27,713 nt of DNA from Candidatus Krumholzibacteriia bacterium (GCA_036478295.1 JAZGDW010000168.1:1-27713); one strand, 5' to 3'. Positions 9,122 through 24,444 are shown, counted from the stretch's first letter. Notes: generated by a model from the letters alone, not told the origin. A program made the numbers and translations.

Positions 9122-10717
9122 ATGCGACACGCAGCACTGACAACCTTGGTTCTGGCAGCCCTCCTGGCGCCCTGGCATGCCCTGGCGGGAGAGGGGCGCG
9201 ACCTCACCCGGCGCGAAGCGGCCTCTGTCTTCGACCGCGTGTTTCACGGCAGAACGCAAGCCGCACTGGCGTACCTGGATTCCTTGAAGGCGGAATGTGA
9301 GGGGTACCCGCTCTACCACATCATGCGCGGACGGTGCCTGCAGGAATTCATTCCGCTTGACGACGCCAACACCAGCAACGCGAAGCGGGCAGCGGTCCCC
9401 GCGCTGACCGAGTTCGACCGGACCATCGCGGCCTGCACGGCGCGCATCGACAGCGGGGGCGCCCACTCGACGCACTATCTCTACCGTGGGTGGGCGTGGA
9501 TGGCCAAGTCCTACATCCGGTCGATGTCGCGAAGTTTCTGGACGGCGGGACGCGAAGCCGGGCGGGGCAAGAAGGACCTCAAGATTTACCTGGGCTCCTA
9601 TCCCGACGACACGACCGCCAATGGCATCCTGGGTTCGTTCCTCTACTTTGCGGACACCATTCCCACAGCATTCAAGTTTCTCTCCAAGCTGCTGCGCCTC
9701 CCGAGCGGCGACCGCGTGGAAGGCCTGGAGCGCCTGCAGTATGCCGCACTCCACGGGGGTCCACTGGACACGGACTACAAGCTCATTCTCTATAATGTGT
9801 ATTTCTATTTCGAAGGGCGCTACGAGGATGGGCTGGCCGGACTGCTGGAGGCAGTCGAGCGTTATCCGGAGTACGCTCGATCTTCCATGCCCCTTTCGGC
9901 CGCCCAGCCGTTCGTGCCCCGCCTGGCCGCCGAGTTGGACGCGCAGATCGAATCGACGCTCGGCAGCATGGCCCGTTTGCCCGCCGGGGCGGTCGACCGC
10001 AACGGTCTCGCCCTGGTCAAGGCGTTCCGCGCATACGGCGCTCGCTATTGTAACCCCGACGCCTCGGCCGCTATGTTCCAGGCAATCATTATGGAGGCGC
10101 CGCAACACCCCGACTGGATGCGTGGGTTCGCACGTTACGAACTGGGAGGCCTCTACGCGGCGACCGGCCGGCGCTCCGAGGCGAGGGCATTGTTCGAGTC
10201 GGTCGTCACCGAAGACGCGTACCGTTACCACCGCGATCATGCCAGACGGATGCTGGCTGACCTCGACGAGTTTGCCGACTCGCTGCCGTCAGCCGTGCAG
10301 CCCGACGACGAGTGGATCAGGGCCGTTTACCGGACCGGCGACGACTCGCTTGCCGTTCTGGCCGCGCGCTTCGAGGCGCTCGCCGCGACTTCGCTGCCCG
10401 CTTCTTTTTATGCCGCCGAATGCCGCCTGCTGGCCGGCGACCATGACAACGCGCTCGACGTCTACCGCGGGATCATCGACACCGACGCCCCTGCCTGGGA
10501 GGAGACCTACCAGATGCTCGCGGCCCAGCGAGTTGCCGAGATCTACGCCGCGCGCGAAAAGTACAAGACGGCGGCCGAGTACATCGGGCGGGCCCAGGAT
10601 TTCTATCACAAGGAGTACCTGGTAGACTGGATTCTCTCCGGCCGCAAGCGCTATTTCGAGCGGTTGGCCGACGGTAAGGAAACGGTGACCCCCAACCTGC
10701 TGTCCGTCAACCCGTGA
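9122..10717 (+). CDS. Exported tetratricopeptide-repeat/all-helical protein of unknown function
   Basis: Signal peptide MRHAALTTLVLAALLAPWHALA; TPR-like repeats (ARYELGGLYAATGRRSEARALFESV; AAQRVAEIYAAREKYKTAAEYI); GAGG RBS upstream. Confidence 0.75.
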   Translation: MRHAALTTLVLAALLAPWHALAGEGRDLTRREAASVFDRVFHGRTQAALAYLDSLKAECEGYPLYHIMRGRCLQEFIPLDDANTSNAKRAAVPALTEFDRTIAACTARIDSGGAHSTHYLYRGWAWMAKSYIRSMSRSFWTAGREAGRGKKDLKIYLGSYPDDTTANGILGSFLYFADTIPTAFKFLSKLLRLPSGDRVEGLERLQYAALHGGPLDTDYKLILYNVYFYFEGRYEDGLAGLLEAVERYPEYARSSMPLSAAQPFVPRLAAELDAQIESTLGSMARLPAGAVDRNGLALVKAFRAYGARYCNPDASAAMFQAIIMEAPQHPDWMRGFARYELGGLYAATGRRSEARALFESVVTEDAYRYHRDHARRMLADLDEFADSLPSAVQPDDEWIRAVYRTGDDSLAVLAARFEALAATSLPASFYAAECRLLAGDHDNALDVYRGIIDTDAPAWEETYQMLAAQRVAEIYAAREKYKTAAEYIGRAQDFYHKEYLVDWILSGRKRYFERLADGKETVTPNLLSVNP

Positions 10718-10835: not shown

Positions 10836-11876
10836 ATGCGTATTCGGTACCCCTTCAGGGCCTTCAAAGACGTTGTTATCCGAAAGGGATTTGTCGAGGC
10901 ACAGCTCATCGTCACGCGGCGGTGCAACCTCAGCTGCGGCTACTGTACCGAATACGACAACGTCTCCAAGTCCGTCCCCTTCGAATTGCTGCGCGAGCGC
11001 ATTGACGCGCTGCACCGGCTCGGCGTGGCGCAGATCGCGTTGCTCGGCGGTGAGCCGCTGATGCACGAGGACCTCGACAAGATCGTCGAGCACGCCGGAC
11101 GCGCCTCCCAGGTGTCCATGACCACAAACGGTTTTCTCGTCGGCAAGGACATGATCGATCGCTTGAATCGCGCGGGACTCACCCACATGCAGGTCAGCAT
11201 CGACGCGCTGACCACCAAAAAGGACATGTACATTCAAAAGACCCTGAAGACGTTGCGGGGCAAGCTCGAGCTGCTGCTCCGGCTCGCCGACTTCAGCGTC
11301 CACGCCAACATTGTTCTGTGCGAGGAATCCATACCGGAGTTCAAAGAGATAATCGCGGAACTTCGCCGCCTGCAGATCCCGGTCACGGTCAATCTGCTCC
11401 ACAACGACAAGGGAATGGTGGCCATAAAGGGGTCCCGGTACATCGACTTGTGGGAATACCATTATCGGGAATCCAAAGTCATATCCTACATCGAATACGA
11501 ATACGGCAAGTCACTGCTGAAGGGAGAGCGCAAGGACTGGCTGTGCCGGGCGGGAAGCCGCCACATCTACGTGGACGAGTTTGGCAACGCGCAGTTTTGC
11601 GCGTCCCAGCGCGGACGACTCGACAAGCCCATCGTCGAGTTTACCCGCGCCGACATGCAACAACACGCGAGAGAGAGTAAGGGGTGCGAGAAGGGTTGCG
11701 CGGTTTTTTGTGTTTACCGTGCGTCGCAGTTCGACAACGACTTTCTCGGAGTGGCCAAAGCGCTCCTGAAGAGTGTGCGAAACAGTACCATCTCAATCCC
11801 CATCCGGTCCGGGAACGCCCGAGCGCAAAAAGTGCCAACGCAGTTAGAAACCGCCGGTGACTCAAAGCGCCCGTAA
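10836..11876 (+). CDS. Radical SAM enzyme with C-terminal SPASM/twitch-like Cys-rich domain
   Basis: CNLSCGYC (CX3CX2C), LGGEPLMH, TTNG, QVSID; C-terminal CRAG...FCASQ...GCEKGCAVFC. ATG 10836 chosen; GAGG upstream. Confidence 0.9.
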   Translation: MRIRYPFRAFKDVVIRKGFVEAQLIVTRRCNLSCGYCTEYDNVSKSVPFELLRERIDALHRLGVAQIALLGGEPLMHEDLDKIVEHAGRASQVSMTTNGFLVGKDMIDRLNRAGLTHMQVSIDALTTKKDMYIQKTLKTLRGKLELLLRLADFSVHANIVLCEESIPEFKEIIAELRRLQIPVTVNLLHNDKGMVAIKGSRYIDLWEYHYRESKVISYIEYEYGKSLLKGERKDWLCRAGSRHIYVDEFGNAQFCASQRGRLDKPIVEFTRADMQQHARESKGCEKGCAVFCVYRASQFDNDFLGVAKALLKSVRNSTISIPIRSGNARAQKVPTQLETAGDSKRP

Positions 11877-12450
11877 GTGGAGTCTTTTCGCCCTGACCGC
11901 TGTTGTGGTGCTCTCCGGCGGGGCGCTTTCCCTGTGGTACTTCCCCGAGCAGAGAGGGCTGGTGTGGCTCGGGCTCTACACCATTCCCTCCCACATGTTC
12001 GTCTCCCCGTTTCCACACGAGCCGCTGCTGCTTTACTACGCGAAATCGTACCCCGCAATCGGGTGCGCCATCGCATCCCTGGCGGGCTGCCTGGTCGCCG
12101 GCATGTGGGATTACTTTCTTTTCATCCCGCTCATTCACCACCCGCGGCTCCGGGTGAAGTATGTGAACACGGGACTCTACAAGCGTTCGGTGGATTTTTT
12201 CAGGAAATGGCCGTTCTGGGCCCTGGTGGGCGTCGGTTTCACGCCGATTCCCTTCTACCCCATAAAATTTCTTTCGATCGCCGACGGTTATCCCATGACG
12301 AAATACCTGGCCGCGCTCGTCGTGGGCCGGACGCCACGCTACTACGCGATCGCCTATCTGGGCTACGTGCTCAATCTCCCAAACTGGAGCCTCGTCGCAC
12401 TCGCGCTGGTCTTTCTCGCCGTTACCCTGTACATGAATCGCAAGAGCTGA
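11857..12450 (+). CDS. DedA/VTT (SNARE-associated, YqaA-like) membrane protein
   Basis: Hydrophobic protein with SPFPHEP, GFTPIPFYP and VVGRTPRY re-entrant motifs; GTG start overlaps the end of the radical SAM gene. Confidence 0.75.
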   Translation: MTQSARKWSLFALTAVVVLSGGALSLWYFPEQRGLVWLGLYTIPSHMFVSPFPHEPLLLYYAKSYPAIGCAIASLAGCLVAGMWDYFLFIPLIHHPRLRVKYVNTGLYKRSVDFFRKWPFWALVGVGFTPIPFYPIKFLSIADGYPMTKYLAALVVGRTPRYYAIAYLGYVLNLPNWSLVALALVFLAVTLYMNRKS

Positions 12451-12513: not shown

Positions 12514-13011
12514 CTACTCTCGTGGTGGGCGACCGACGACACCGGTCAGTATGAGGATCCCGATGGCAACGAGTACCAGCGGCCAGCCCTTGGTCAAGAA
12601 CCAATCCGCTGGTGCGAAATCCAGGCCGACACCCTTTACCAGCAGGATGGCGCCCGGGATGAGCGGCCACCAGGGCGAACGGTCCCGTACCACCATATCG
12701 AGAATGAATATCGCGACGAAACCCAGTCCCAGGCCCAGGGCCTGGCCGTCGCTGATATTGAGGCTCGTGCGGTCGATGACCCTGCCGACGCCCAGGCCCA
12801 GCAGGACGCAGGCGGGGATGAGCAACCCGTAACGCCGTCGGTAGAGGTACCAGGCCAGAAATACGCCTCCGACGGTAAACAGCACCAGCGTGTTGTCCGC
12901 CGGTCGGCCGGAAAGCCGGACAAGAAACAACACCAGGCCCAGAACAACCAGTGTGCTACCGGCGACGTGCCGGCGGTGGCCCCGCCGCGTTCCTGCTTCG
13001 TGTTCCGACAT
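12514..13011 (-). CDS. Small multi-pass membrane protein (LiaF/LiaI-like transmembrane repeats)
   Basis: About 6 hydrophobic segments; GLLIPACVLLGLG, WWPLIPGAILL, GWPLVLVAIGILIL; GGAGG RBS just upstream. Confidence 0.65.
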   Translation of the reverse strand: MSEHEAGTRRGHRRHVAGSTLVVLGLVLFLVRLSGRPADNTLVLFTVGGVFLAWYLYRRRYGLLIPACVLLGLGVGRVIDRTSLNISDGQALGLGLGFVAIFILDMVVRDRSPWWPLIPGAILLVKGVGLDFAPADWFLTKGWPLVLVAIGILILTGVVGRPPRE

Positions 13012-13020
13012 TTGCCTCCC

Positions 13021-13758
13021 CTATTCTTCGTTCAGCCGCCGTGAAATCCAGATCGTACGGTAGATGGCGGTGGCGACGGTTCCCGTGGCGATGACAACGA
13101 TGATAATGCGCAGGATGAACCCTGGGTCCTTGTCCAACGCGCCGGACAGCGCCGGATCGAGAATTGCCCCGAAACCGAGCAGCAGCAGGCGCTCGGCACG
13201 CTGCATCAGACCGGCCTTGCAGGTGATTCCGAGACCCTCACCCCGCGCCCGTGTGTAACTCACCAGCAGTGAGCCCCCGAGTGCGACCAGCACGAAGAGT
13301 ACCATGGACCCCGATTGAAAGAACGCAGCCAGCCCGACGAACACGGCCAACTCGCTGAAGCGGTCGAGCGTCGAATCGAGAAACGCCCCGCTCGATGACA
13401 CGAGGTCGCGGCTGCGTGCGATCTCTCCGTCCATGACGTCGGCGAACCCGCTGAGCAGAATGCACCATCCCGCCGCCGGCAGTTGCCCGCGCGCGAAGAA
13501 CGCCATGCTCGCCACACCGCACGCGACGGCGAAAAGGTTGAAAAAGAGCGGACTCAACCGCATGCCCAGAGACACTCGCTTGACCGGTCGTATGAACCAG
13601 TAGAACCAGTTCCTCACCCAGAAGCCCAAAACGAACGAGCCGCCGCGGCCGGTGACGTCGCCCAAGCCGGTGCGACCCTCCCCGCTAAAACGATACACGG
13701 CCATCGTCAGCAGGGCGAAGCCGATCAACCCGGTGAGCAACGCCAGTTCTCCTCTCAT
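13021..13758 (-). CDS. CDP-alcohol phosphatidyltransferase family protein
   Basis: Signature DxxDGxxAR...GxxxDxxxD present as DVMDGEIARSRDLVSSSGAFLDSTLDRFSE; VSYTRARGE and GLMQRAER as in PgsA/PI-synthase-like members. Confidence 0.93.
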   Translation of the reverse strand: MRGELALLTGLIGFALLTMAVYRFSGEGRTGLGDVTGRGGSFVLGFWVRNWFYWFIRPVKRVSLGMRLSPLFFNLFAVACGVASMAFFARGQLPAAGWCILLSGFADVMDGEIARSRDLVSSSGAFLDSTLDRFSELAVFVGLAAFFQSGSMVLFVLVALGGSLLVSYTRARGEGLGITCKAGLMQRAERLLLLGFGAILDPALSGALDKDPGFILRIIIVVIATGTVATAIYRTIWISRRLNEE

Positions 13759-14819
13759 CGCGGGTTCCCCCTGGCGTTTTGATCGTCCCGACCGTCATGG
13801 TTCCCCGGACTCGCCCGCATCGCCCGAAACACCCGAAACACCTTCGGCCACAGGAGAAAGATCGGAAGCCGCCGTTCGTTGGGGGTGAGTTCCAGGTGAA
13901 GGCCGGTTCGTCGCTCGATTTTGCGCACGATGTAGTCCAACCAGTCGTCGAAGGTCAACATGTACTTCGACCATCTTAGCGTCGCGCGTATTTTCGACCC
14001 CACAAAAAAGAGGCGCCAGCGAAGCCTGCCTCGGAGAGCTGGAGGTTCCACCATGTGATACAGCCCGTCCCCACGCTCGAGTATTCCATCACGCACCGCG
14101 TCTTGCAGAATGCGCGTGTAGCTCAATATCAGGTAATGCCGCTGTGCCTCGAACACTTCTCCCACGCGTGCTTTTGATTCCGGGCGGATCTCGCCTGCGT
14201 ACGACCGATCGAGCATGCGGCGGCAATAGTCGAGAACCGAAAAACTTCGCGGCAGGTACAGAGGCACCCAGTCGAGCGTAAGCCGTCTCGCATCGAGCAG
14301 GCGTTCCTCCAGACGCGCGCCGTCCGCCGGCGTTCGTGCGTGAACGATCTGGAACTGCTGCATCATGCGGCCCCTGCAAAAGTGATCCCTGGCGCCGTCC
14401 GAAAGAGCCACCTCCAAATCGCTGCGACTGATTACGAAGCACTTGGTGCCGGCTCGCAGGTCGCCGGGATCACGCACAGATATGATGTTCGGGGGCAAAA
14501 AACGATTGAGGGCCGCCATGATCCTGGCCCGCCGCCGGGCAGGAAGGCGCCTGCCGATATCGCTGTAGAATCTCTCGTACTCTTCGACGACGACGAAGAG
14601 ATCAGCCGCGCTGTGAGCGTCGGGAGAAGTTCCCAGCAGCCGGGACCCGAAGAGAATGACCGCTGCCAGGTTGTCGCCGCAGGCCTCCGTCAACAATCCG
14701 AGACTGACCCTGACCTCGGGCGGCAAGCTGCTGCCGCTGAGATGGCTGGCGAGTGCGGCTTCTGCGCCGAAATCACCGGCGATTACTTTTTCGTTGTGAA
14801 CCCTTTCAGAGTCCGACAT
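13755..14819 (-). CDS. Tam41/Mmp37-like nucleotidyltransferase (putative lipid-phosphate cytidylyltransferase)
   Basis: Pol-beta-type NTase start VILFGS...ADLFVVV, then LPPN, KCFVIS, GRMMQ and SYAGEIRPE, matching the Tam41 order (YGS, DxxxxV, KYGV, GRLxKP, SYxGDxR). ATG 14819; 4-bp overlap with the next gene. Confidence 0.7.
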   Translation of the reverse strand: MSDSERVHNEKVIAGDFGAEAALASHLSGSSLPPEVRVSLGLLTEACGDNLAAVILFGSRLLGTSPDAHSAADLFVVVEEYERFYSDIGRRLPARRRARIMAALNRFLPPNIISVRDPGDLRAGTKCFVISRSDLEVALSDGARDHFCRGRMMQQFQIVHARTPADGARLEERLLDARRLTLDWVPLYLPRSFSVLDYCRRMLDRSYAGEIRPESKARVGEVFEAQRHYLILSYTRILQDAVRDGILERGDGLYHMVEPPALRGRLRWRLFFVGSKIRATLRWSKYMLTFDDWLDYIVRKIERRTGLHLELTPNERRLPIFLLWPKVFRVFRAMRASPGNHDGRDDQNARGNPR

Positions 14820-14820
14820 G

Positions 14821-15597
14821 TCACTCCTGGTCTGCCACGCGGCTCGCGGGAGCCTCCCGCATCTCGTGGAGCTTATCACACATCAGGTCACGCATGCGTA
14901 CGATGAACGCCGCCACGTCCTCTTCCGGTCCGGGTGACGGAAAAGGCCCGGTGCTTTCGATCCGCGCGCGGACCGAGCTGATGTTGTGGATATAATCGAC
15001 GAGCTTCGCACACCGCCAAAACCCGTCGACCACGACGACGTGTACGTTCCAGCGCCGTGCCCCCAGGATCGCCTCCAGACCGGCGGTCCTGAAAGGTCTG
15101 ATTTCCCCGTCCCGTGTCCGCGATCCCTCTGGAAAGATCAGCATCGGGTGTGTTGTCGTCGCCGCCACCTTGCGCAATCTCTCCAGTTGTGCGGCGCCGC
15201 CCCGCCCCGGATCGACCAGCGGGTGATTGTCGAAGCGTAGTAACGGGGACACCAGCGGGATCTTGCGGCCGTAGCGCGCTCGGGTCACGGCCAACGCGTA
15301 TCCGCCCTTCATTACCTCGTACGCTACCGGGATGTCGAGCAGCGACTGGTGGTTCATGAGGATCAGCGTCCCGGGTTCCGCCGCTATGCGGGCCCGAATG
15401 TCGATATCCGCCCCGCCGACGTGGCGGGGCAACCACACCGAGATCGCCGAGAGCCACCGTATCCACCTGCGGAGCACGCGCCCACGCGACGACGGAAAAA
15501 ACCACACCACCGGCACGATGATCGTTCGTTGCACCAGGTCTCCGGTCAGCAGGAAGACGCCGACCAGGAACAGGCTGAAAACTCCTCGAAACGCCAA
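14821..15597 (-). CDS. PlsC/lysophospholipid acyltransferase family protein
   Basis: NHQSLLD (HX4D catalytic motif) and IFPEGSRTRDG; hydrophobic N-terminus; TTG start with AAGGGGA upstream. Confidence 0.9.
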   Translation of the reverse strand: MAFRGVFSLFLVGVFLLTGDLVQRTIIVPVVWFFPSSRGRVLRRWIRWLSAISVWLPRHVGGADIDIRARIAAEPGTLILMNHQSLLDIPVAYEVMKGGYALAVTRARYGRKIPLVSPLLRFDNHPLVDPGRGGAAQLERLRKVAATTTHPMLIFPEGSRTRDGEIRPFRTAGLEAILGARRWNVHVVVVDGFWRCAKLVDYIHNISSVRARIESTGPFPSPGPEEDVAAFIVRMRDLMCDKLHEMREAPASRVADQE

Positions 15598-15767
15598 TAG
15601 CTTAATCTATCCCCTTTGTCGAAACCTCTTTCGAGCCGCGCTCCGTCCCAACACCCGTGAATTCTCTTTCTTGGTGCTTGACTTGTGATTTCCTTAAATG
15701 CTTGACTTTCATCGAGGTTTCGAACAGTCTATGCGCTGAGCGTCACTGAGAAACTAGAACGATTGCC

Positions 15768-17126
15768 ATGAAACCGTCAAGACAACATGCCGAAAAACTG
15801 GTTACGGACGATGACGCCCGGCCGGAGCGGGTAGCGCCCGAACCCAAGAAATCCGCGACCACCGGCCCCCGACCGAAGCTCTCCGAGTACGACTTTAGCA
15901 ACTTCTTCTTCGGCTCCGGCGACGATCCCTTTGTCATGGTCGACGCATTCGATGACTGGTGGCCGGACGCGAGGGCCGCCGGTTATTACCTCTTCGTGGG
16001 CCAGCCGATGCTCACCCCCCCGGTCACCCGCGTCGATATTCTCGAGGCCAAAAACTATACGAAACTCTCAAACCTCATTAACTTTGCGTCGTATAACTAC
16101 CTCGGACTGTCCTACCGCGAGGACATCCGGGAGGCGATCATCGAGGCGACAGGCAAGTACGGCAGCGGCGCCTCAGGCTCACCGATTCTGAGCGGCACGC
16201 TCGACCTGCACGACGAACTGGCGGAGAAGGTCGCGCGCTTCAAGCGCACCGAGGCATCACTGATTTTCCCCTCCGGGTACAGCGCAAACCTCGGCGTTAT
16301 CGCGGGTTTGATGCGTTCGGGGGATCTCGTCGTTACCGACCAGTACGCGCACGCAAGCATCGTGGACGGCATCATCCTGTCCAAGGCAAAGGTCCGCTAT
16401 TTCCGTCACAACGTCATTGGAGACCTCGAACGAAAGCTGAGGGAATTCCCTGGCAAGAAGCTGGTCATCGTCGAGGGCGTCTACTCAATGGACGGTGATT
16501 TGGCCAAGCTTCCCGAGATCGTGGAGGTGTGCCGGCGCCATGGGGCGCGGATCATGATTGATGAGGCCCACTCGGCGTTCATTTTCGGCAAGAACGGCCG
16601 CGGCGTGGCCGAGCACTTCGGCCTCGAGGATGAAATAGACATCCACTTCGGAACCTTTTCCAAGAGCCTCGGGGGCATCGGCGGCTACGTCGCCGGCTCG
16701 CAGAAGCTCATCAACTACCTGCGCGGCTTCGCCCGCTCGCGTATGTTCTCGTGCGCGCTGCCTCCGGGCGTGGTGGCCGGACTCCTCAAGGCGCTCGAGA
16801 TCGCACAGGCGGAGCCGGAGCTTCGGGTAAAACTGTGGGACAACGTCGGTGTCATGAGCAACCTGCTCAAGAAATCGGGGGTCGACATCGGCTCGTCGGC
16901 GTCCCAGGTGATCCCGATAATGGTTCGCGACGACGAACGAGTCTTCCAGATTGCCGAAGAGTTGCTGCACGAGGGCGTATACCTCAACATCGTCCGCTAT
17001 CCCGCCGTAGGCAAACACCGGTCCCGTTTCCGCATCTCAGTGACCGCCGCCCATTCCATGGCCGACCTGGAGCAAGGCACGGAGAAAATCATCCGCGTGC
17101 TGAAAAGGAACGGGTTGTGCCACTAA
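15768..17126 (+). CDS. PLP-dependent alpha-oxoamine synthase, probably serine palmitoyltransferase-like
   Basis: NFASYNYLGL, SGYSANLG, HASIVDG, EGVYSMDGD, DEAHS, GTFSKSLG (PLP Lys), RFRIS. Long N-terminal extension; no bio genes nearby and the context is lipid biosynthesis. Confidence 0.85.
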   Translation: MKPSRQHAEKLVTDDDARPERVAPEPKKSATTGPRPKLSEYDFSNFFFGSGDDPFVMVDAFDDWWPDARAAGYYLFVGQPMLTPPVTRVDILEAKNYTKLSNLINFASYNYLGLSYREDIREAIIEATGKYGSGASGSPILSGTLDLHDELAEKVARFKRTEASLIFPSGYSANLGVIAGLMRSGDLVVTDQYAHASIVDGIILSKAKVRYFRHNVIGDLERKLREFPGKKLVIVEGVYSMDGDLAKLPEIVEVCRRHGARIMIDEAHSAFIFGKNGRGVAEHFGLEDEIDIHFGTFSKSLGGIGGYVAGSQKLINYLRGFARSRMFSCALPPGVVAGLLKALEIAQAEPELRVKLWDNVGVMSNLLKKSGVDIGSSASQVIPIMVRDDERVFQIAEELLHEGVYLNIVRYPAVGKHRSRFRISVTAAHSMADLEQGTEKIIRVLKRNGLCH

Positions 17127-17776
17127 CCCGGTACCATTTTCGGCAGGCGGTCAGCGCCTTTTTTGAGATGTCGTCGGAGGGTGCTCGTGCCATCCTGCCG
17201 CGCCACCTCGAGCCCCTCGAGGTGCGTCATTCTCGGGGAGTATTCGCCGTCACCGCCTTCGATTTTACGGACAGCATGGTCGGCAGCTACCATGAAATCG
17301 TTCTCGCCGTGATTTCCCCTCCGCTCATGAAGGGCGGGGCCATGCCCAAATCCGCCTTCTATCCGTTCATGGTCGGCACTAGCACCCGTGAGGCCCGGGA
17401 GCACGCCATCCAGCGCTGGCACCTGCCGCATTTCATGAGCGACATCGGTATGGATTTCGATGAATCCAGCGGGCAGATCAAGGTAAAGGTCTTCGAGGCG
17501 GACGAACCCATACTCGACCTGACCGTCACCGAGCACGCCTGGACAGAGGTCGATCATCTTTACCAGGCGTTCACGATTGACGAGTCGGAGAGATTCAAGG
17601 CGGACATCCACATGAAGGGACGCTTCACCGAGCACGAAGAAGAGAAAGGCGAGATCGTTCTCCACGATCACCCGATGTGCGAGCAGATCCTCGATGCGGA
17701 TATCGAATCGTACCCTTTTCGAGAGCTGTGGATGAAAGACGGCGTGCAGACTTTCGAGGAACTCGAGACCATCTGA
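17117..17776 (+). CDS. Acetoacetate decarboxylase (ADC)-like fold protein
   Basis: GTG 17117 after AAAAGGAA, overlapping the upstream stop. ARAILPRHLEP, FDFTDSMVGSYHEIVLAV and AIQRWHLPH align with the ADC-family pattern (LPxxLxP, GxYxE, GRxxWGxPK). Confidence 0.65.
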   Translation: MPLTRYHFRQAVSAFFEMSSEGARAILPRHLEPLEVRHSRGVFAVTAFDFTDSMVGSYHEIVLAVISPPLMKGGAMPKSAFYPFMVGTSTREAREHAIQRWHLPHFMSDIGMDFDESSGQIKVKVFEADEPILDLTVTEHAWTEVDHLYQAFTIDESERFKADIHMKGRFTEHEEEKGEIVLHDHPMCEQILDADIESYPFRELWMKDGVQTFEELETI

Positions 17777-17803
17777 TTTTCAACCAGCCTATCCCTGAAC
17801 GCG

Positions 17804-18706
17804 ATGTCCCGGGCCACATTCGTCCTTGTTAATCCAGCCGCCGGAAGGCGTCGCGGGCGCACGCGCATCGACAGGTACCTCGACCTTCTCCGCAAGCACC
17901 TCCCCTCGTTCGACCACGCTGAAACGACGCACGCGGGTCACGAAATCGACCTTAGCAACGAGGCGCTGTCCAGCGGCTACCAGAACCTCATTGCCATCGG
18001 AGGCGACGGCACGTGGAGCGCCGTGGCCGACTGCATCGTGAAGAGCGGCCGAGAGGACGTGTCCCTGGGCATGCTCCCCGCCGGCACCGGCAACGATTTT
18101 GGAAAGTCACTGGGCATCACCTTCGAACGGGCAGAAGCCGTGGTGCGCGGTATTGCCGCGGGCCGGCGGCGAACGGTTGACGTTGGCCGGGTGGAGGGTC
18201 GTCATTTCCTGAATGTCGTCGGGCTCGGATTCGACATCGCCGTCATCGACGATGCGGAGGACTTCCCCCTTCTCAAGGGTGACGCGCTGTACCAGGTGTG
18301 CGCGCTACGCCAGCTGTTCCGTTTCCGGGGTATTCCGCTCAGTGTCTCCGCGGCGGATGCCCGGCCCGATCGCCGCGATCACCTGATGCTCGTCATTGCC
18401 AACGCCAACTATTTTGGGGGGTCGTTTCACATCGCGCCCAGCGCCAGTCTCGAGGATGGCATGCTCGATGCCGTATCCATCTACGATGCAGGCCCGCTGG
18501 CCCGCGCCAGTCTCTTCAAAAAAGTCGCAAAGGGACGGCACGAGGGCGAGGAAAAGGTCAGGATCCAGCAATCGGGGGCGTTTCGCATCGAGTGCGATGG
18601 TCCGGTACGATACGAAGTGGACGGCGAGGTGTACACGTCACGCGGCAGCGTGCTCGAGGTGCAGTCGTTGCCGCGGGCGCTGACCGTTTTTATCCCGGAT
18701 TCGTAG
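17804..18706 (+). CDS. Diacylglycerol/sphingosine kinase family lipid kinase (YegS/DgkB-like)
   Basis: VNPAAG, IGGDGT, LPAGTGNDFG, DVG, YFGGSF, DGMLD, VDGE. Confidence 0.92.
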   Translation: MSRATFVLVNPAAGRRRGRTRIDRYLDLLRKHLPSFDHAETTHAGHEIDLSNEALSSGYQNLIAIGGDGTWSAVADCIVKSGREDVSLGMLPAGTGNDFGKSLGITFERAEAVVRGIAAGRRRTVDVGRVEGRHFLNVVGLGFDIAVIDDAEDFPLLKGDALYQVCALRQLFRFRGIPLSVSAADARPDRRDHLMLVIANANYFGGSFHIAPSASLEDGMLDAVSIYDAGPLARASLFKKVAKGRHEGEEKVRIQQSGAFRIECDGPVRYEVDGEVYTSRGSVLEVQSLPRALTVFIPDS

Positions 18707-18725
18707 GACACACGTCTCGGTGGCG

Positions 18726-18810
18726 GTTGTTGGATTGTCTCCCTGGCCGTGCTCCACTGTCAGCCTTGCGGCGGTGCGTTGTTGGATCGCCTCCCTCGCC
18801 GTGCTCCACT
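18726..18810. repeat. Two 33-bp direct repeats (18726-18758 and 18778-18810)
   Basis: GTTGTTGGATTGTCTCCCTGGCCGTGCTCCACT vs GTTGTTGGATCGCCTCCCTCGCCGTGCTCCACT, 30/33 identical. Confidence 0.85.
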
Positions 18811-18851
18811 TCGCTCGGCTACCCGCCTACGGCGGGTGATCCTCGCTCGTT

Positions 18852-19050
18852 CCCGCAACGGCTCCGTCACCAACCCAACAACGCCCCACCACCTAGTCCC
18901 GCAACGGCTCCGTCACCAACCCACCAGGCGCCCCGCTGACTTGCTCCGAAACGTCTCCGTCACCAACCCAACAACACCCCACCACCTGGGCCCGCAACGG
19001 CTCTGTCAACAACCCAACAACCGCCCCCCGACTTGTTCCTGCGACGGCTC
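18852..19050. repeat. Tandem 46/47-bp repeat, about 4.3 units
   Basis: Core CCCGCAACGGCTCCGTCACCAACCCA (or close variant) starts at 18852, 18898, 18945 and 18991, with a partial copy at 19038. Confidence 0.9.
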
Positions 19051-19151
19051 GATGCGGGTGGCAGCGAACGGGCGCCCGGCCGCGCGCAGCCTGCGAGCAC
19101 GGACGGGCTGTTCGCTGACAGGACCCGCATCGAGCCGCGCGTCGCTCACGC

Positions 19152-20143: not shown

Positions 20144-20731
20144 TTGATCGAGATCCGCACTCATGGCAGAGGCGGGCAAGGCGCCGTCGTCGCATCGAAA
20201 GTACTTGCGGTCGCGCTGTTCAAGGAAGACCGGTACGTCCAGGCGTTTCCCGCCTTTGGGGTGGAGCGACGCGGCGCGCCGGTGGTTGCGTTCACTCGTT
20301 TCGACGATAAACCGATTCGCCGCCGATGCGAGATTTATACACCGGACCATCTCATTGTTCTCGACCACGCGCTGACAGGAGCCACCGATGTTACAGAAGG
20401 GCTCAAGAGCGGCGGTTGGATTGTCATCAACACGCACACGGATCCCAGCGGTTGTTTCCGGACGGGCAACTTTCGACTCGCCGTGGTGGACGCGAACGCC
20501 ATTGCCTGGCGGCATCACCTGGGCAGCCGTGCAACGCCGATCGTCAACACGGCGATCCTCGGTGCCTTCGCCAGGGCTACGGGGCTCGTGAGCCTCGATT
20601 CCGTCATCGAAGCCGTACTGGAATCTGTTCCGACCCACCCAGAAGGCAACAGGCAAGCGGCCATCGATGCGTACAATGAGACCGAAGTTTACGACACCAT
20701 CGCGCTGTGCGACGAGGTGACGGAAGGATAA
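20144..20731 (+). CDS. porC: 2-oxoacid:ferredoxin oxidoreductase gamma subunit
   Basis: IEIRTHGRGGQGAV, QAFPAFGVERRGAPV, PIVNTAILGAF; TTG start, AAGGGAG RBS. Confidence 0.92.
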   Translation: MIEIRTHGRGGQGAVVASKVLAVALFKEDRYVQAFPAFGVERRGAPVVAFTRFDDKPIRRRCEIYTPDHLIVLDHALTGATDVTEGLKSGGWIVINTHTDPSGCFRTGNFRLAVVDANAIAWRHHLGSRATPIVNTAILGAFARATGLVSLDSVIEAVLESVPTHPEGNRQAAIDAYNETEVYDTIALCDEVTEG

Positions 20732-22398
20732 TGAGCGGTAACAAGAAAACATTTGATGACGTGTCACAGGTACCACTCGGCGCGGTGTCCGCCGACGACA
20801 TGCGCTGGAACAAAACCGGCACGTGGCGCAACGTAAGGCCGTTCTTCGACCCGAAGACGTCGCCTTGCATTGCGGGCTGCCCCGCTGGCGAGAACATCCA
20901 GGAATACATCGCCCTCGCCCGCGAAGGTCGTTTTGAAAAAGCGGTCCGCGTCATATGGGAGAGCAACCCGTTTCCGGCGATTTGCGGCAGAATCTGCTAC
21001 CACCCGTGCATGGACCGCTGCATGCGCAGTGAACACGACGGGGCTGTGTTCATTCCCGCGATCGAGCGTTTCCTGGGCGACTATGCGATCGAGAAGAAAA
21101 TAAAACAGAACCCGCCCTCGAAGAGGTTGGGATTCGAGATCGCGATCATCGGCGGCGGACCCGCCGGCCTCAGCTGTGCCTATTTTCTGGCCCGCAGGGG
21201 TTTTGGCGTGACGGTATTCGAAGCAAAAGAACAACTGGGCGGCGTGTTGCGCTACGGCATTCCCCAATACCGGCTGCCCAATGACGTGCTCGACGCCGAG
21301 TTGGACAGGCTGTACGCGCTCGGAGTGAAGATCAAAACGTCCACCGTCGTGGGCAAGGATATGGGGGTCGAGGAGCTATCGAAATACTCGGCCTATTTTC
21401 TCGGAGTGGGGCTGCAGGGAAGCCGAAGACTCAATTTGGAAAATGAAGACGCCAGAGGTGTCATGCCGGGGCTGAAGTTCCTGGAGGCAGTAAATACGGG
21501 GAAAACAGTGGATGTCGGGAAACGTGTGGTCGTCGTCGGTGGCGGGAACACGGCGATGGATGTGGCGCGGAGCGCGCGCCGCCTGGGCGCTGAAGTCACA
21601 GTGCTCTACCGGCGGACGCGAAACGAGATGCCGGCCATCGAGGATGAAGTGAGGGAAGCCGCTGACGAAAACGTGGCCTTCAGGTTTCTTGCGGCCCCGG
21701 CAGAAATCATTACGCACAACGGCGGGGTCAAGGAACTCCGCTGTCAAGAAATGGAACTCGGGCTGCCGGACGACACGGGCAGGAAACGTCCAGTGCCCAA
21801 AGCGGGCGCGTTTTTCACGCTCCCGCTCGATTCGCTCTTAGTCGCCGTCGGTGAGATCCCGGATGTGGAGTCATTCGAGTCGATAGTGTCTGTATCGAAC
21901 GGGCTCATTGTGACCGACGAATTCGGGAGAACATCCAACGAAAAGGTTTTCGCCGGCGGCGACATCGTGACCGGAGCGTCCACAGTTGTGAACGCGATTG
22001 CCAGGGGACGCGGCGCGGCGGAACTCATCGCCGCAGAGCTGACGGACGGCGTCTTCGACCCGAAGCAGCAGAGGAAGGTCGTAGCCATCGCGGATATCAA
22101 TGCCGCCTATTTCTTGCACAAAAAGGCGGCCACCATGCCGCAATCGAACGGCGGCGGCGAGTCCTTCACAGAGGTCAACCTGGGACTCACCTGTGACCAG
22201 GTGAAACAGGAACTGTCGCGCTGCTACAGCTGTGGCGTTTGTGACGGGTGCGACAACTGCTGGGTATTTTGTCCCGACGTCGCCATCTCGAGAGAGGACG
22301 GCGTCTATACGATCGACTACGACTACTGCAAGGGTTGTCTGATCTGCGTTCAGGAATGCCCGCGCGGCGTTCTGGCCTCGGAGAGAGAGACGTCATGA
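20731..22398 (+). CDS. Fusion of 2-oxoacid oxidoreductase delta subunit with a GltD/DsrL-like FAD/NAD(P)H oxidoreductase
   Basis: PorD-like N-terminus NKTGTWRNVRP; PCIAGCP...NPFPAICGRICYHPC; GGGPAG; GGGNTAMD; YRRTR; FAGGD; C-terminal RCYSCGVCDGCDNCWVFCPD...IDYDYCKGCLICVQECP. TAATG and ATGA overlaps with neighbours. Confidence 0.88.
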   Translation: MSGNKKTFDDVSQVPLGAVSADDMRWNKTGTWRNVRPFFDPKTSPCIAGCPAGENIQEYIALAREGRFEKAVRVIWESNPFPAICGRICYHPCMDRCMRSEHDGAVFIPAIERFLGDYAIEKKIKQNPPSKRLGFEIAIIGGGPAGLSCAYFLARRGFGVTVFEAKEQLGGVLRYGIPQYRLPNDVLDAELDRLYALGVKIKTSTVVGKDMGVEELSKYSAYFLGVGLQGSRRLNLENEDARGVMPGLKFLEAVNTGKTVDVGKRVVVVGGGNTAMDVARSARRLGAEVTVLYRRTRNEMPAIEDEVREAADENVAFRFLAAPAEIITHNGGVKELRCQEMELGLPDDTGRKRPVPKAGAFFTLPLDSLLVAVGEIPDVESFESIVSVSNGLIVTDEFGRTSNEKVFAGGDIVTGASTVVNAIARGRGAAELIAAELTDGVFDPKQQRKVVAIADINAAYFLHKKAATMPQSNGGGESFTEVNLGLTCDQVKQELSRCYSCGVCDGCDNCWVFCPDVAISREDGVYTIDYDYCKGCLICVQECPRGVLASERETS

Positions 22399-23573
22399 AA
22401 AAGGTGATGGAAGGCAACCACGCCATTTCCTACGGGGTGCAGGCCAGCGAGGTCCAGGTGATCTCGGCCTACCCCATTACGCCCCAGACGCAGATTGTGG
22501 AACGGCTCTCCGAGCTGTGCGCGGGCGGCGAGCTCGACGCCAAGTTCATCAAGGTGGAATCGGAACACTCGGCGATGGCCGCCGTCATCGGCGCCAGTGC
22601 GGCGGGCGCACGCGCCTTTACCGCCACGTCCTCGCAGGGCCTGCTCCTCATGCACGAGATGCTGCACTGGGCCGTAGGCGCCCGGCTGCCCGTGGTGCTC
22701 GCAAACGTCAACCGCGCCGTCGGTCCGCCGTGGAACATCTGGACCGACCAGAACGACTCGCTGTCACAGCGAGACACCGGCATGCTACAGCTGTATTGCG
22801 AAAGCAACCAGGAAGTATTCGACACCGTTCTGCAGGCGTACCGCATTGGCGAAAAGGTGATGTTGCCGGTGATGCTCGTCCTCGACGCCTTTTTTCTGTC
22901 GCACACTTCGGAGATAGTGGACGTCTTTGGCCCCGACGAAGCGCGAGAATATCTACCGCCCTACCGGCCCGCCGAGAGCCTGTCGCCGGAGAGCCCGAAG
23001 GCGTTTGGAAATCTGACCGGACCGGACAACTACTACGAACTGCGCTACAGCATCTTCAACGACATGCAGCGCGCGATCGACGTGGCAAAGGAGGCGGACG
23101 ATGAGTTCGAAAGACTGTTCGGCCGCCGGTACGGCATCGTCGAGGAGTATCGCACCGACGGGGCGGACACCATCCTTGTCACCTCCGGGACGGTGACCAG
23201 CACGGCGCGCGAGGTGGTCGACGAACTGCGGGATGCGGGACGGGCGGTGGGGCTCCTCAAGATGCGACTCTTCCGGCCCTTCCCCACGCACGAGGTACGC
23301 CGCGTGCTCGGCGGCCGGCGGAAAGTAGCCGTCATCGACCGCAACATAGGGTTCGGTGTCGGCGGCATCTTCGCGCAGGAAATCAAGTCCGCTTTGTGGG
23401 GCGTGGGCGAGCACCTGCCGCTGTTCAGCTTTATCGCCGGCATCGGCGGGCGTGATGTCACACCGGATGTTATCAAGGAAATCATGGATATTACGGACAG
23501 TTCGGAAATGCCAACAGAAGAAGTCTACTGGATCGGTGTAAAGGATGAGCAACTATCATATCTCACAAAATGA
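22395..23573 (+). CDS. porA: 2-oxoacid:ferredoxin oxidoreductase alpha subunit
   Basis: GNHA, AYPITPQT, VESEHSA, TATSSQGL, NRA, RLFRPFP, GIGGRD; ATG 22395. Confidence 0.93.
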   Translation: MKKVMEGNHAISYGVQASEVQVISAYPITPQTQIVERLSELCAGGELDAKFIKVESEHSAMAAVIGASAAGARAFTATSSQGLLLMHEMLHWAVGARLPVVLANVNRAVGPPWNIWTDQNDSLSQRDTGMLQLYCESNQEVFDTVLQAYRIGEKVMLPVMLVLDAFFLSHTSEIVDVFGPDEAREYLPPYRPAESLSPESPKAFGNLTGPDNYYELRYSIFNDMQRAIDVAKEADDEFERLFGRRYGIVEEYRTDGADTILVTSGTVTSTAREVVDELRDAGRAVGLLKMRLFRPFPTHEVRRVLGGRRKVAVIDRNIGFGVGGIFAQEIKSALWGVGEHLPLFSFIAGIGGRDVTPDVIKEIMDITDSSEMPTEEVYWIGVKDEQLSYLTK

Positions 23574-24444
23574 GCTAATGACTTCGGGCCATCTAGCCTG
23601 CCAGGGGTGCGGCGCAACGCAGGCCATGCGCTTCGCACTTAAAGCACTCGGGTCACGCACGGTCATGGTAATGCCCGCGTGCTGCTGGTCGGTCATAGAT
23701 GGCCCTTTTCCTCATACCGCCGTGCAGATACCGATTTTCCACACGGCGTTCGAAACCGCGGCAAGCACCGCGTCCGGCGTCAAGGCCGGTCTCCAAATGC
23801 GTGGCGACCACGAAACGACCGTGGTCGCCTGGGCGGGCGACGGCGGTACGTTCGACATCGGCCTGCAGGCACTAAGCGGCGCCGCTGAACGCAACGAAGA
23901 CATTATCTTCGTCTGTTATGACAACGAGGCCTACATGAACACGGGTGTTCAACGCTCCAGTGCCACACCGCTCGGTGCGTGGACGACCACGACACCGTAC
24001 CCACACCTCAAGTCACGACCCAAGAAGCGCATGCTCGATATCCTCGTCGCGCACGGTATTCCCTATATCGCGACCGCGTCGGTCGCCTATCCGGATGACC
24101 TGGTTCAGAAATTCTACACGGCGAGAAAGATATCCGGTATGCGCTTCATCCATGTCTTCGCCCCCTGCCCCACGGGATGGAAAAGCCCTCCGGAGATAAC
24201 GGTCGAGCTCGCCCGCCTGGCGGTCGAGACACGCCTCTTTCCACTACTAGAGGTCACGGACGGCAAGTACTACCGCGTATGGAAGGATCTCCCGAAACGG
24301 CCGGTGCGCGATTACATCAAGCTGCAGGGGCGCTTTTCGCGGATGGGCGATGAGGAGATCGATCGTATCGAACAAGAGGTGGAGGAACGCTGGCAGGAAC
24401 TCCTCCAGCGGGAGACACTCAGGGAAATGAAGACGTCGTCCTAG
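23545..24444 (+). CDS. porB: 2-oxoacid:ferredoxin oxidoreductase beta (TPP-binding) subunit
   Basis: GHLACQGCG, GDGGTFDIG...YDNEAYMNTGVQRS, PCPTGW, QGRF. Confidence 0.93.
   Translation: MSNYHISQNELMTSGHLACQGCGATQAMRFALKALGSRTVMVMPACCWSVIDGPFPHTAVQIPIFHTAFETAASTASGVKAGLQMRGDHETTVVAWAGDGGTFDIGLQALSGAAERNEDIIFVCYDNEAYMNTGVQRSSATPLGAWTTTTPYPHLKSRPKKRMLDILVAHGIPYIATASVAYPDDLVQKFYTARKISGMRFIHVFAPCPTGWKSPPEITVELARLAVETRLFPLLEVTDGKYYRVWKDLPKRPVRDYIKLQGRFSRMGDEEIDRIEQEVEERWQELLQRETLREMKTSS

Follow-up and report, generated by a model that had tools for sequence, protein, structure and literature searches.

A widely conserved, apparently undescribed six-gene lipid cluster that may make a sphingoid-base phospholipid without bacterial ceramide synthase

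A 27,713-nucleotide stretch of DNA from a Candidatus Krumholzibacteriia bacterium (GCA_036478295.1, JAZGDW010000168.1; the whole stretch is hereafter called the window) carries six adjacent genes that form a real, widely conserved and apparently undescribed lipid cluster. They encode an alpha-oxoamine synthase (AOS) resembling serine palmitoyltransferase (SPT), an ADC-fold protein, a lipid kinase of the diacylglycerol kinase (DAGK) family, a PlsC-family acyltransferase, a Tam41-fold nucleotidyltransferase (NTase) and a CDP-alcohol phosphotransferase (Table 1). Judged from sequence and predicted structure, the cluster may make a sphingoid-base phospholipid without the bacterial ceramide synthase, bCerS, and we place the probability that a sphingoid backbone, CDP activation and acylation by PlsC all hold together at about 0.5.

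Surveys score sphingolipid makers by the genes Spt, bCerS and CerR (ceramide reductase), a rule that would miss this cluster. If true, the proposal would add both a new class of ceramide synthase and a CDP-activated sphingolipid. No description of this six-gene set was found in the literature searched (most subscription papers lay outside its scope), and a search for "CDP-ceramide" together with "bacteria" and "sphingolipid" found no paper. Relatives of the ADC-fold protein are encoded in at least 333 genome stretches, in soil and marine phyla.

Gene Organization and Distribution

The initial annotation had described two divergent, tightly packed operons without bCerS, CerR or acyl carrier protein (ACP), and Pfam and NCBIfam searches bore this out: all six open reading frames were recovered, and none of the three missing genes was found inside the window. 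The AOS and ADC-fold genes overlap by 10 nt and those for the NTase and CDP-alcohol transferase by 4 nt, while PlsC and the NTase are separated by 1 nt. The ADC-fold gene starts at the GTG at 17117, overlapping the AOS stop, a start borne out by its relatives.

The host genome belongs to the Krumholzibacteriota (3.5 Mb in 316 contigs, 91% complete; the window is contig C77), and the cluster recurs in this phylum, in Gemmatimonadota, Acidobacteriota, Eisenbacteria and Gammaproteobacteria, and in records labelled Acidimicrobiia. Loci were fetched with ADC and NTase profiles (80 loci each) and with an AOS query (12 loci); they include kin, and thus locus counts are not counts of independent loci. 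The unbiased set for co-occurrence is the 47 NTase-fetched loci whose flanks each extend 4.5 kb or more, and here the ADC-fold gene was present in 47, the AOS and the kinase in 46 each, the CDP-alcohol transferase in 44 and PlsC in 41, so that the gene set is indeed conserved elsewhere. Among 62 ADC-fetched loci, the kinase, PlsC and the NTase each occurred in 60, the CDP-alcohol transferase in 57 and the AOS in 48, and 10 of the 12 loci from the AOS query (66-72% identical) carried as much of the cluster as their contigs span. Among 208 genomes from the phylum, the ADC-fold gene was found in 26 and the NTase in 27, the same set plus one. All six genes form a single operon in Vicinamibacteria, and the NTase stood alone, without the cluster, in one Myxococcales case. 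A search of plasmid sequences gave one weak match.

Genes missing from a locus were commonly found elsewhere in the same genome. Where the AOS was missing, an orthologue with 62-67% identity lay elsewhere in 15 of 16 genomes; likewise, PlsC-less loci had a PlsC orthologue (47-56% identity) elsewhere in four of the five genomes tested, once in two pieces, and the fifth had only a broken match of 36-39%. These orthologues rule out bCerS as a substitute for PlsC at such loci, and a family considered as a second PlsC (f10) was dismissed since only one locus, L160, matched. One Vicinamibacteria genome holds two cluster copies (L182 and L183), both without PlsC. In Gammaproteobacteria-type loci L049, L050, L060 and L079, the cluster stops at the NTase, with a VTT gene after the kinase; the transferase was absent at the locus, the search being confined to it. 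Eleven Gemmatimonadota loci (L088:11692-12309 and 10 similar ones) have a 205-aa protein after the kinase with no Pfam or NCBIfam match. Apparent AOS-ADC and ADC-kinase fusions were left uncounted, as they may be frameshift artefacts.

Probable CDP Activation and Head Group

The strongest link to sphingolipid chemistry is the NTase. Its predicted structure (pLDDT 90.4) had bacterial Tam41 (7ecd) as the top Foldseek match (E 1e-8), and its profile matched S. pombe Tam41 (E 8.8e-6) with shared GS, D, K, GR, S, R and E motifs, in agreement with the fold guessed earlier. For comparison, three of ten canonical SPT loci retrieved from proteobacteria show the Caulobacter gene order with a gene of 303-317 aa between spt and the kinase. 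The cluster NTase is a full-length homologue of these CpgC-position proteins (hhalign probability 99.9, E 2.5e-34, 293 columns), whose identity as CpgC is given by gene order matching CC_1165-CC_1155 rather than by the Caulobacter sequence itself. In Caulobacter, the formation of ceramide phosphoglycerate depends on CC_1161 at a point after ceramide-1-phosphate; its product has an InterPro domain of the CDP-DAG-synthase type and has been proposed to form NDP-ceramide (PMC11324152). The CDP-activation step is thus backed by both fold and homology, with a ceramide-type substrate presumed. The mechanism of CpgC is a stated open question (PMC12275187), and the Tam41 fold of its family makes the NDP-ceramide proposal (PMC11324152) directly testable in Caulobacter. 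A candidate CpgD (CDP-glycerate synthase), represented by one NTP-transferase query from L279 whose identity is presumed, had no host-genome match at E 1e-3.

A phosphoglycerate head group, as in the Caulobacter model first invoked for this cluster, was not borne out: the top five solved matches of the CDP-alcohol transferase were all phosphatidylinositol phosphate (PIP) or phosphatidylinositol synthases (E 4e-17 to 3e-12), so that inositol phosphate is indicated. Its alignment with 5d92 and 6h53 spans the full length and takes in the segments SY..AR.E, ER and terminal R, which probably bind inositol phosphate. The best NCBIfam scores, for AIP and PIP synthase (130.7/180 and 108.7/170 bits), were below the cut-offs. 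The head group is likely to be inositol phosphate, and a gene for myo-inositol-phosphate synthase (MIPS) lies on host contig C107.

The Oxoamine Synthase

Among solved structures, the AOS is closest to the SPT of S. multivorum (3a2b, E 2e-85). Its catalytic set (H195, D265, H268, T296, K299 and R422) is intact in 36/36 rows, as are the SPT-type Tyr109, Ser138 and TFSK, and the residue before the pyridoxal phosphate (PLP) lysine is Ser298, versus Gly in Kbl (18/18), BioF (5/5) and ALAS (1/1). The position of SulA Lys281 (K+30; PMC9304779) is occupied by Cys329 in all 36 rows. The N-terminal extension is conserved from about residue 41 and gave no significant signal of kinship to eukaryotic LCB2.

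The protein scored below every NCBIfam AOS cut-off (SPT models 368/640, 342/500 and 277/670 bits), cut-offs that the bCerS-adjacent SPTs of Bacteroidota also miss (0/61 genomes over). Phylogeny was examined with a 49-row tree that drew 10 rows from 117 cluster sequences and 39 from 84 others. Its references took their labels from NCBIfam scores and from adjacency to bCerS, not from characterised enzymes, and eukaryotic LCB1/2 were left out. The cluster AOS formed its own clade (support 100/100) on the side of the tree that holds SPT, a SulA-like row and uncharacterised AOS, separated from Kbl and BioF/ALAS (94/96, unstarred). The enzyme is thus neither Kbl nor BioF, a point that the initial annotation had left to phylogeny; the only other AOS in the host genome is a Kbl over its NCBIfam cut-off, encoded outside the cluster. 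Its nearest neighbours included the SulA-like protein and uncharacterised Bacteroidota AOS (82/58 and 84/83), and forcing the cluster AOS together with canonical SPT was not rejected (AU test, p 0.0975). The earlier assignment as SPT is partly borne out: the catalytic residues are intact and the protein lies on the SPT/SulA side of the tree, but it falls outside the canonical clade, has pocket residues of its own, and its use of serine is presumed. On present evidence the enzyme would work like SPT, yet it fails canonical SPT membership.

A nearby AOS lineage (L289) is represented in a Bacteroidota sample (L326:5433-11113, G481) by an operon of radical SAM, AOS, AIRS-domain, DAGK kinase and UbiA prenyltransferase genes, which may be a further long-chain-base lipid route.

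The ADC-Fold Protein

The ADC fold suggested for the second gene is supported by its predicted structure (pLDDT 96.4; VIA Z 21.9, rmsd 2.6 over 200 residues to 3bh2), the next unrelated fold having Z 8.1; its profile had 0 matches among sequences of solved structures. The gene directly follows the AOS in 115/115 distinct loci with enough downstream DNA, many of which were fetched through the ADC gene itself. In the 15 genomes with a relocated AOS orthologue, a second ADC gene follows that orthologue; the kinase-side copy keeps the RWHLPH motif in 15/15 and the AOS-side copy keeps WHLPH in 0/15, and a quick tree required at least two origins for the AOS-side copies. This duplication may be read as the splitting of two jobs, one tied to the AOS and free of the motif, the other tied to the kinase step and requiring it.

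No lysine is conserved in the protein (across 38 core rows it reaches at most 68% in any column, and the RWHLPH motif contains none), which makes decarboxylation through a Schiff base unlikely. A His probably occupies the position of the Schiff-base lysine. A complex predicted for an AOS dimer with the ADC-fold protein scored 0.25 against a mark of 0.32, with controls left unfolded.

Kinase and Acyltransferase

The kinase retains GGDGT at 99-100% (118 rows). It had been likened to CpgB, but is instead YegS/BmrU-like: on the cluster-kinase profile, CpgB-position kinases scored 28 and 20 bits versus 444 for the window kinase, and the host genome's other DAGK proteins scored 144 and 141 bits. PMC10331486 refers to a dihydrosphingosine kinase of bacterial origin.

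The closest solved relative of PlsC is the 1-acyl-G3P acyltransferase 5kym (E 1.8e-13), and H83, D88, E157, G158 and R160 are kept at 95-100% (115 rows), with the HxxxxD and PEGxR blocks present. PlsC enzymes act on phosphorylated lyso-lipids, and sphinganine-1-phosphate resembles lyso-phosphatidic acid with an amine at C2. This family chemistry argues for the kinase acting first, the reverse of the N-acylation before phosphorylation proposed in the initial annotation; given the backbone and its CDP activation, that order is somewhat favored.

Ordinary phospholipid steps are already encoded apart in the host genome, with a separate CdsA, three other PlsC-domain proteins, four other CDP-alcohol transferases, two other DAGK proteins and, on C45, a second PIP-synthase-like gene (44% identical); the cluster would thus be a second, dedicated lipid route, and such duplication fits a different lipid backbone. 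The genome also has a fab-cluster ACP and LpxC, and since LpxC is kept, the cluster lipid need not replace lipopolysaccharide. Two fusions are encoded as well, one of NTP-transferase and CDP-alcohol transferase (C256, L352:207-1673), the other of ACP, acyl-ligase and acyltransferase (C209, L332:5374-8025).

Ceramide Synthase, Reductases and Accessory Genes

A search of the host genome for bCerS and CerR, proposed with the initial annotation, was carried out. bCerS was not found there by three queries or a 55-sequence profile (best E 0.11, in this 91% complete assembly), and CerR matches fell below the family range, the best at 184.5 and 159.5 bits versus a leave-one-out range of 249-471 for 26 SPT- or bCerS-linked members of this broad family. 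Among 68 of the 84 carrier genomes searched for bCerS, 41 had no match, 23 a strong one (E 1e-30 or better) and four a weak one; all 12 controls matched. In at least four carriers bCerS adjoins a second, canonical-clade SPT, and in eight it has a clear CerR-like neighbour; it follows that some genomes hold both pathways.

Several candidate reductases accompany the cluster. A Zn-dehydrogenase gene follows the kinase in 28/129 loci, a short-chain dehydrogenase/reductase (SDR) gene precedes the AOS in 13 Vicinamibacteria loci of the 129, and in one Gemmatimonadota locus (L133:7799-8836) the gene right after the kinase encodes an epimerase-type reductase that scores 186 bits with the CerR profile. 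The host SDR, on C136, is 41-44% identical to most operonic SDRs, and within the host order this type was present at orthologue level in 23/24 carriers versus 3/12 non-carriers. The SDR and Zn-dehydrogenase are not strict alternatives, as one genus (g16) has both and SDRs also occur in controls. Since no reductase is established, the product may keep its 3-keto group.

Radical SAM genes lie near the cluster in 10/129 loci (in the host order, 5/24 carriers versus 0/12 non-carriers), and VTT genes flank it in 16/129 (5 plus 11). Radical SAM and Zn-dehydrogenase genes share no locus among the 129, and cross-searches for orthologues gave 0/5 and 0/5, from few lineages and with one search lacking a positive control; this exclusivity is a lead only. 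BtrN and NeoA are a pair of alternative cyclitol dehydrogenases, and by analogy the split might mean oxidation of an inositol head. Elsewhere, L368:16-5509 and L320 (G191) carry B12-radical SAM, AOS and GNAT genes, then bCerS, with a Zn-dehydrogenase of the accessory family directly after it at the usual CerR position. The sole Zn-dehydrogenase homologue of a non-carrier (L369:6496-14278, G005) belongs to a lipid operon that also encodes a fatty-acyl-reductase/ligase/ACP/acyltransferase fusion, a HAD hydrolase and a lactate-racemase-like protein.

Proposed Pathway and Alternatives

In the pathway that we propose, the AOS would join serine to an acyl chain carried by ACP or CoA, yielding a 3-keto long-chain base. 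The ADC-fold protein, to which it is coupled in the genome, may serve as its non-catalytic partner, and the His/Glu site of the same protein may bind or convert the amino-ketone for the kinase. The 3-keto group might then be reduced by an interchangeable SDR, Zn-dehydrogenase or epimerase-type enzyme, differing between lineages, or kept. The kinase would yield a long-chain-base-1-phosphate, a mimic of lyso-phosphatidic acid, and PlsC would acylate its C2 amine, directly or by an O-to-N shift, to give ceramide-1-phosphate, the analogue of phosphatidic acid. From this the Tam41/CpgC enzyme would form CDP-ceramide, to which the PIP-synthase-like enzyme would add myo-inositol-phosphate, giving inositol-phosphoceramide phosphate. 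A sphingoid backbone with CDP activation is probable; granted these, it is quite likely that PlsC is the N-acyltransferase and nearly as likely that the head is inositol. The bolder proposal of a third, independently assembled ceramide-lipid route, which would transfer the logic of glycerophospholipid synthesis to a sphingoid base and combine PlsC N-acylation of the base-1-phosphate, CDP-ceramide, an inositol cap and a dual-role ADC protein, is tentative and on balance doubtful. Soil ceramides have been correlated with a Vicinamibacteraceae sequence variant (ASV), a correlation only (PMC9969633).

Several observations weigh against this pathway. The cluster AOS falls outside the canonical bacterial SPT clade (97/95), and its Pro139 and Cys329 (36/36) replace the Arg (26/27) and Ala (27/27) of canonical SPT. 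To our knowledge, PlsC-family enzymes are O-acyltransferases, and we know of no precedent for N-acylation by the family, which is both the weak point of the proposal and its novelty. With the genome 91% complete, bCerS is not found rather than proven absent, and bCerS homologues occur in 27/68 carriers. No reductase is universal among carriers: the Zn-dehydrogenase occurs in 18/27 phylum carriers and 1/181 others, with 0/7 in the window's family, and SDRs of the operonic type occur in 22/55 other carriers as well as 3/12 controls (about 42% identical). MIPS is present in 187/208 phylum genomes and hence is not carrier-specific, three gammaproteobacterial-type loci lack the CDP-alcohol transferase, and no cultured carrier was found among the loci from the AOS, ADC and NTase searches. 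Finally, CpgB accepts both ceramide and DAG as substrates in vitro (PMC10331486), so that membership of a kinase family does not settle the substrate.

Some of these difficulties would vanish if the product were a nitrogen-free or O-acyl lipid, in which the His/Glu site of the ADC-fold protein, by rearrangement or deamination, turns the amino-ketone into a long-chain hydroxy-ketone or polyol that serves the kinase, PlsC, Tam41 enzyme and PIP synthase as a carbon-linked mimic of glycerol. PlsC would keep to the O-acyl chemistry known for its family; the lack of a universal reductase would be accounted for; retention of the motif on the kinase side alone places the site after the AOS; and CqsA-type AOS enzymes lead to hydroxy-ketones. 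This is nevertheless unlikely: the pathway in which the homologue at the CpgC position works is one for ceramide. A link to the 1,2-diol lipids of Thermomicrobium was not found by profile searches: the NTase profile had matches in 0/2 Thermomicrobium genomes, with the positive control found, and the ADC profile gave one weak partial match in 101 Thermomicrobiales genomes. Slightly more unlikely is a sphingolipid-like aminolipid whose amino acid is homoserine, threonine or some modified substrate, the enzymes downstream being unchanged. The unique pocket formed by Pro139 and Cys329 and the tree neighbours, among them a SulA-like protein that has Lys at K+30 and uncharacterised Bacteroidota AOS, speak for it, but Ser138 agrees with SPT, a clade with canonical SPT was not rejected, and the kinase can act only on a hydroxyl, so that alanine, glycine and cysteate could serve only if another step supplied one.

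The presence of bCerS in a minority of carriers and the incomplete host genome would suit a scheme in which ceramide comes from bCerS or another N-acyltransferase elsewhere, the cluster phosphorylating and decorating it while PlsC adds a third, O-linked chain. We regard this as about equally improbable, if not slightly more so: the 41 carriers without bCerS include three single-contig genomes (G188, G201 and G202), and where bCerS adjoins canonical SPT it serves another pathway. Least probable is that the kinase, PlsC, Tam41 enzyme and PIP synthase salvage monoacylglycerol or DAG to phosphatidylinositol phosphate, with the AOS-ADC pair a mere passenger. Characterised members of each family do act on glycerolipids and the pair can leave the cluster; departure of the AOS, however, leaves an ADC copy beside the kinase, 15/16 such genomes retain the AOS, and housekeeping copies of these enzymes, with the second PIP-synthase-like gene, are already present.

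Comparison with Known Systems

The sphingoid-base pathway proposed here has its nearest counterpart in the Caulobacter crescentus spt-cpg genes (PMC11324152, PMC12275187, PMC10331486), where an AOS likewise lies beside a DAGK-family kinase, a CpgC-family NTase and a CDP-alcohol phosphotransferase. Unlike that system, the cluster is without bCerS, CerR, ACP, AasR and LptFG and adds PlsC and the ADC-fold protein; its AOS and kinase are of other subfamilies, and its transferase, PIP-synthase-like, shows scarcely any similarity to the protein at the CpgA position (blastp E 0.13). The canonical Spt-bCerS-CerR pathway (PMC11087976, PMC11334938) also starts with a PLP-dependent long-chain AOS, whereas here the AOS lies outside that clade, host bCerS was not found and CerR was below its family range; replacement of bCerS and CerR by non-homologous proteins has been raised as a possibility (PMC11334938). 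MIPS, a PIP-synthase-type transferase and an inositol sphingolipid (for the cluster, as proposed here) are shared with Bacteroides thetaiotaomicron BT_1522-1526, where PIP-DAG is made from CDP-DAG and the Aur1-like BT_1522 is tied to the ceramide product (PMC9246714). The cluster, in contrast, would use a CDP-activated ceramide and has no Aur1-like gene among its conserved neighbours.

At the level of single proteins, SulA, like the cluster AOS, is a long-chain AOS that does not belong to the canonical SPT clade, and a SulA-like row is placed nearby with low support, but SulA has Lys281 where the cluster enzyme has Cys (PMC9304779). The Tam41 CDP-DAG synthase of mitochondria and Firmicutes shares fold and motifs with the cluster NTase, which differs in a C-terminal extension common to CpgC-position proteins and in its AOS neighbourhood, with CdsA also present. 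The ADC-like superfamily (ADC, MppR, Sbi00515 and Swit_4259) shares its fold with the cluster protein (Z 19-22) at 10-14% identity, the conserved lysine being absent from the latter.

Features of the Window

Table 1. Features of the cluster and adjacent genes in the window.
Feature	Position	Strand	Details
SPT-like alpha-oxoamine synthase (AOS), own subfamily	15768..17126	+	452 aa; PF00155; PLP Lys299
ADC-fold protein	17117..17776	+	219 aa; PF06314 26.2 bits, below 29.8 cut-off; RWHLPH motif
YegS/BmrU-type DAGK-family lipid kinase	17804..18706	+	300 aa; PF00781, PF19279; TIGR00147 over cut-off
PlsC-family acyltransferase	14821..15597	-	258 aa; PF01553 45.7 bits, cut-off 23; one N-terminal hydrophobic segment
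Tam41-fold, CpgC-family NTase (candidate CDP-ceramide synthase)	13755..14819	-	354 aa; no Pfam match
CDP-alcohol phosphotransferase, nearest PIP synthases	13021..13758	-	245 aa; PF01066 54.1 bits
Divergent intergenic region, presumed shared promoter	15598..15767		170 nt, seen in sequence; no repeats
Radical SAM protein, accessory in some lineages	10836..11876	+	PF04055
VTT/DedA-domain membrane protein, accessory, possible flippase	11857..12450	+	PF09335 E 1.5e-5, under cut-off
Membrane protein, probably lineage-specific	12514..13011	-	165 aa; four hydrophobic segments; 9 nt past CDP-alcohol transferase

The 165-aa membrane protein had no Pfam or NCBIfam match and, among the matches listed, was found only in a same-genus genome. 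Upstream, a TPR protein (9122-10717) has a paralogue on C87, and its homologues flank the CDP-alcohol transferase in 8/129 loci, from several other lineages. The region 3' of the kinase (18719-19137) contains REP-like repeats: an 82-nt unit in two copies (88%), a 33-nt unit in two copies (91%), and inverted pairs. Further downstream, positions 20144-24444 hold what appears, judged from translations only, to be an ordinary four-gene pyruvate:ferredoxin-oxidoreductase-like operon.

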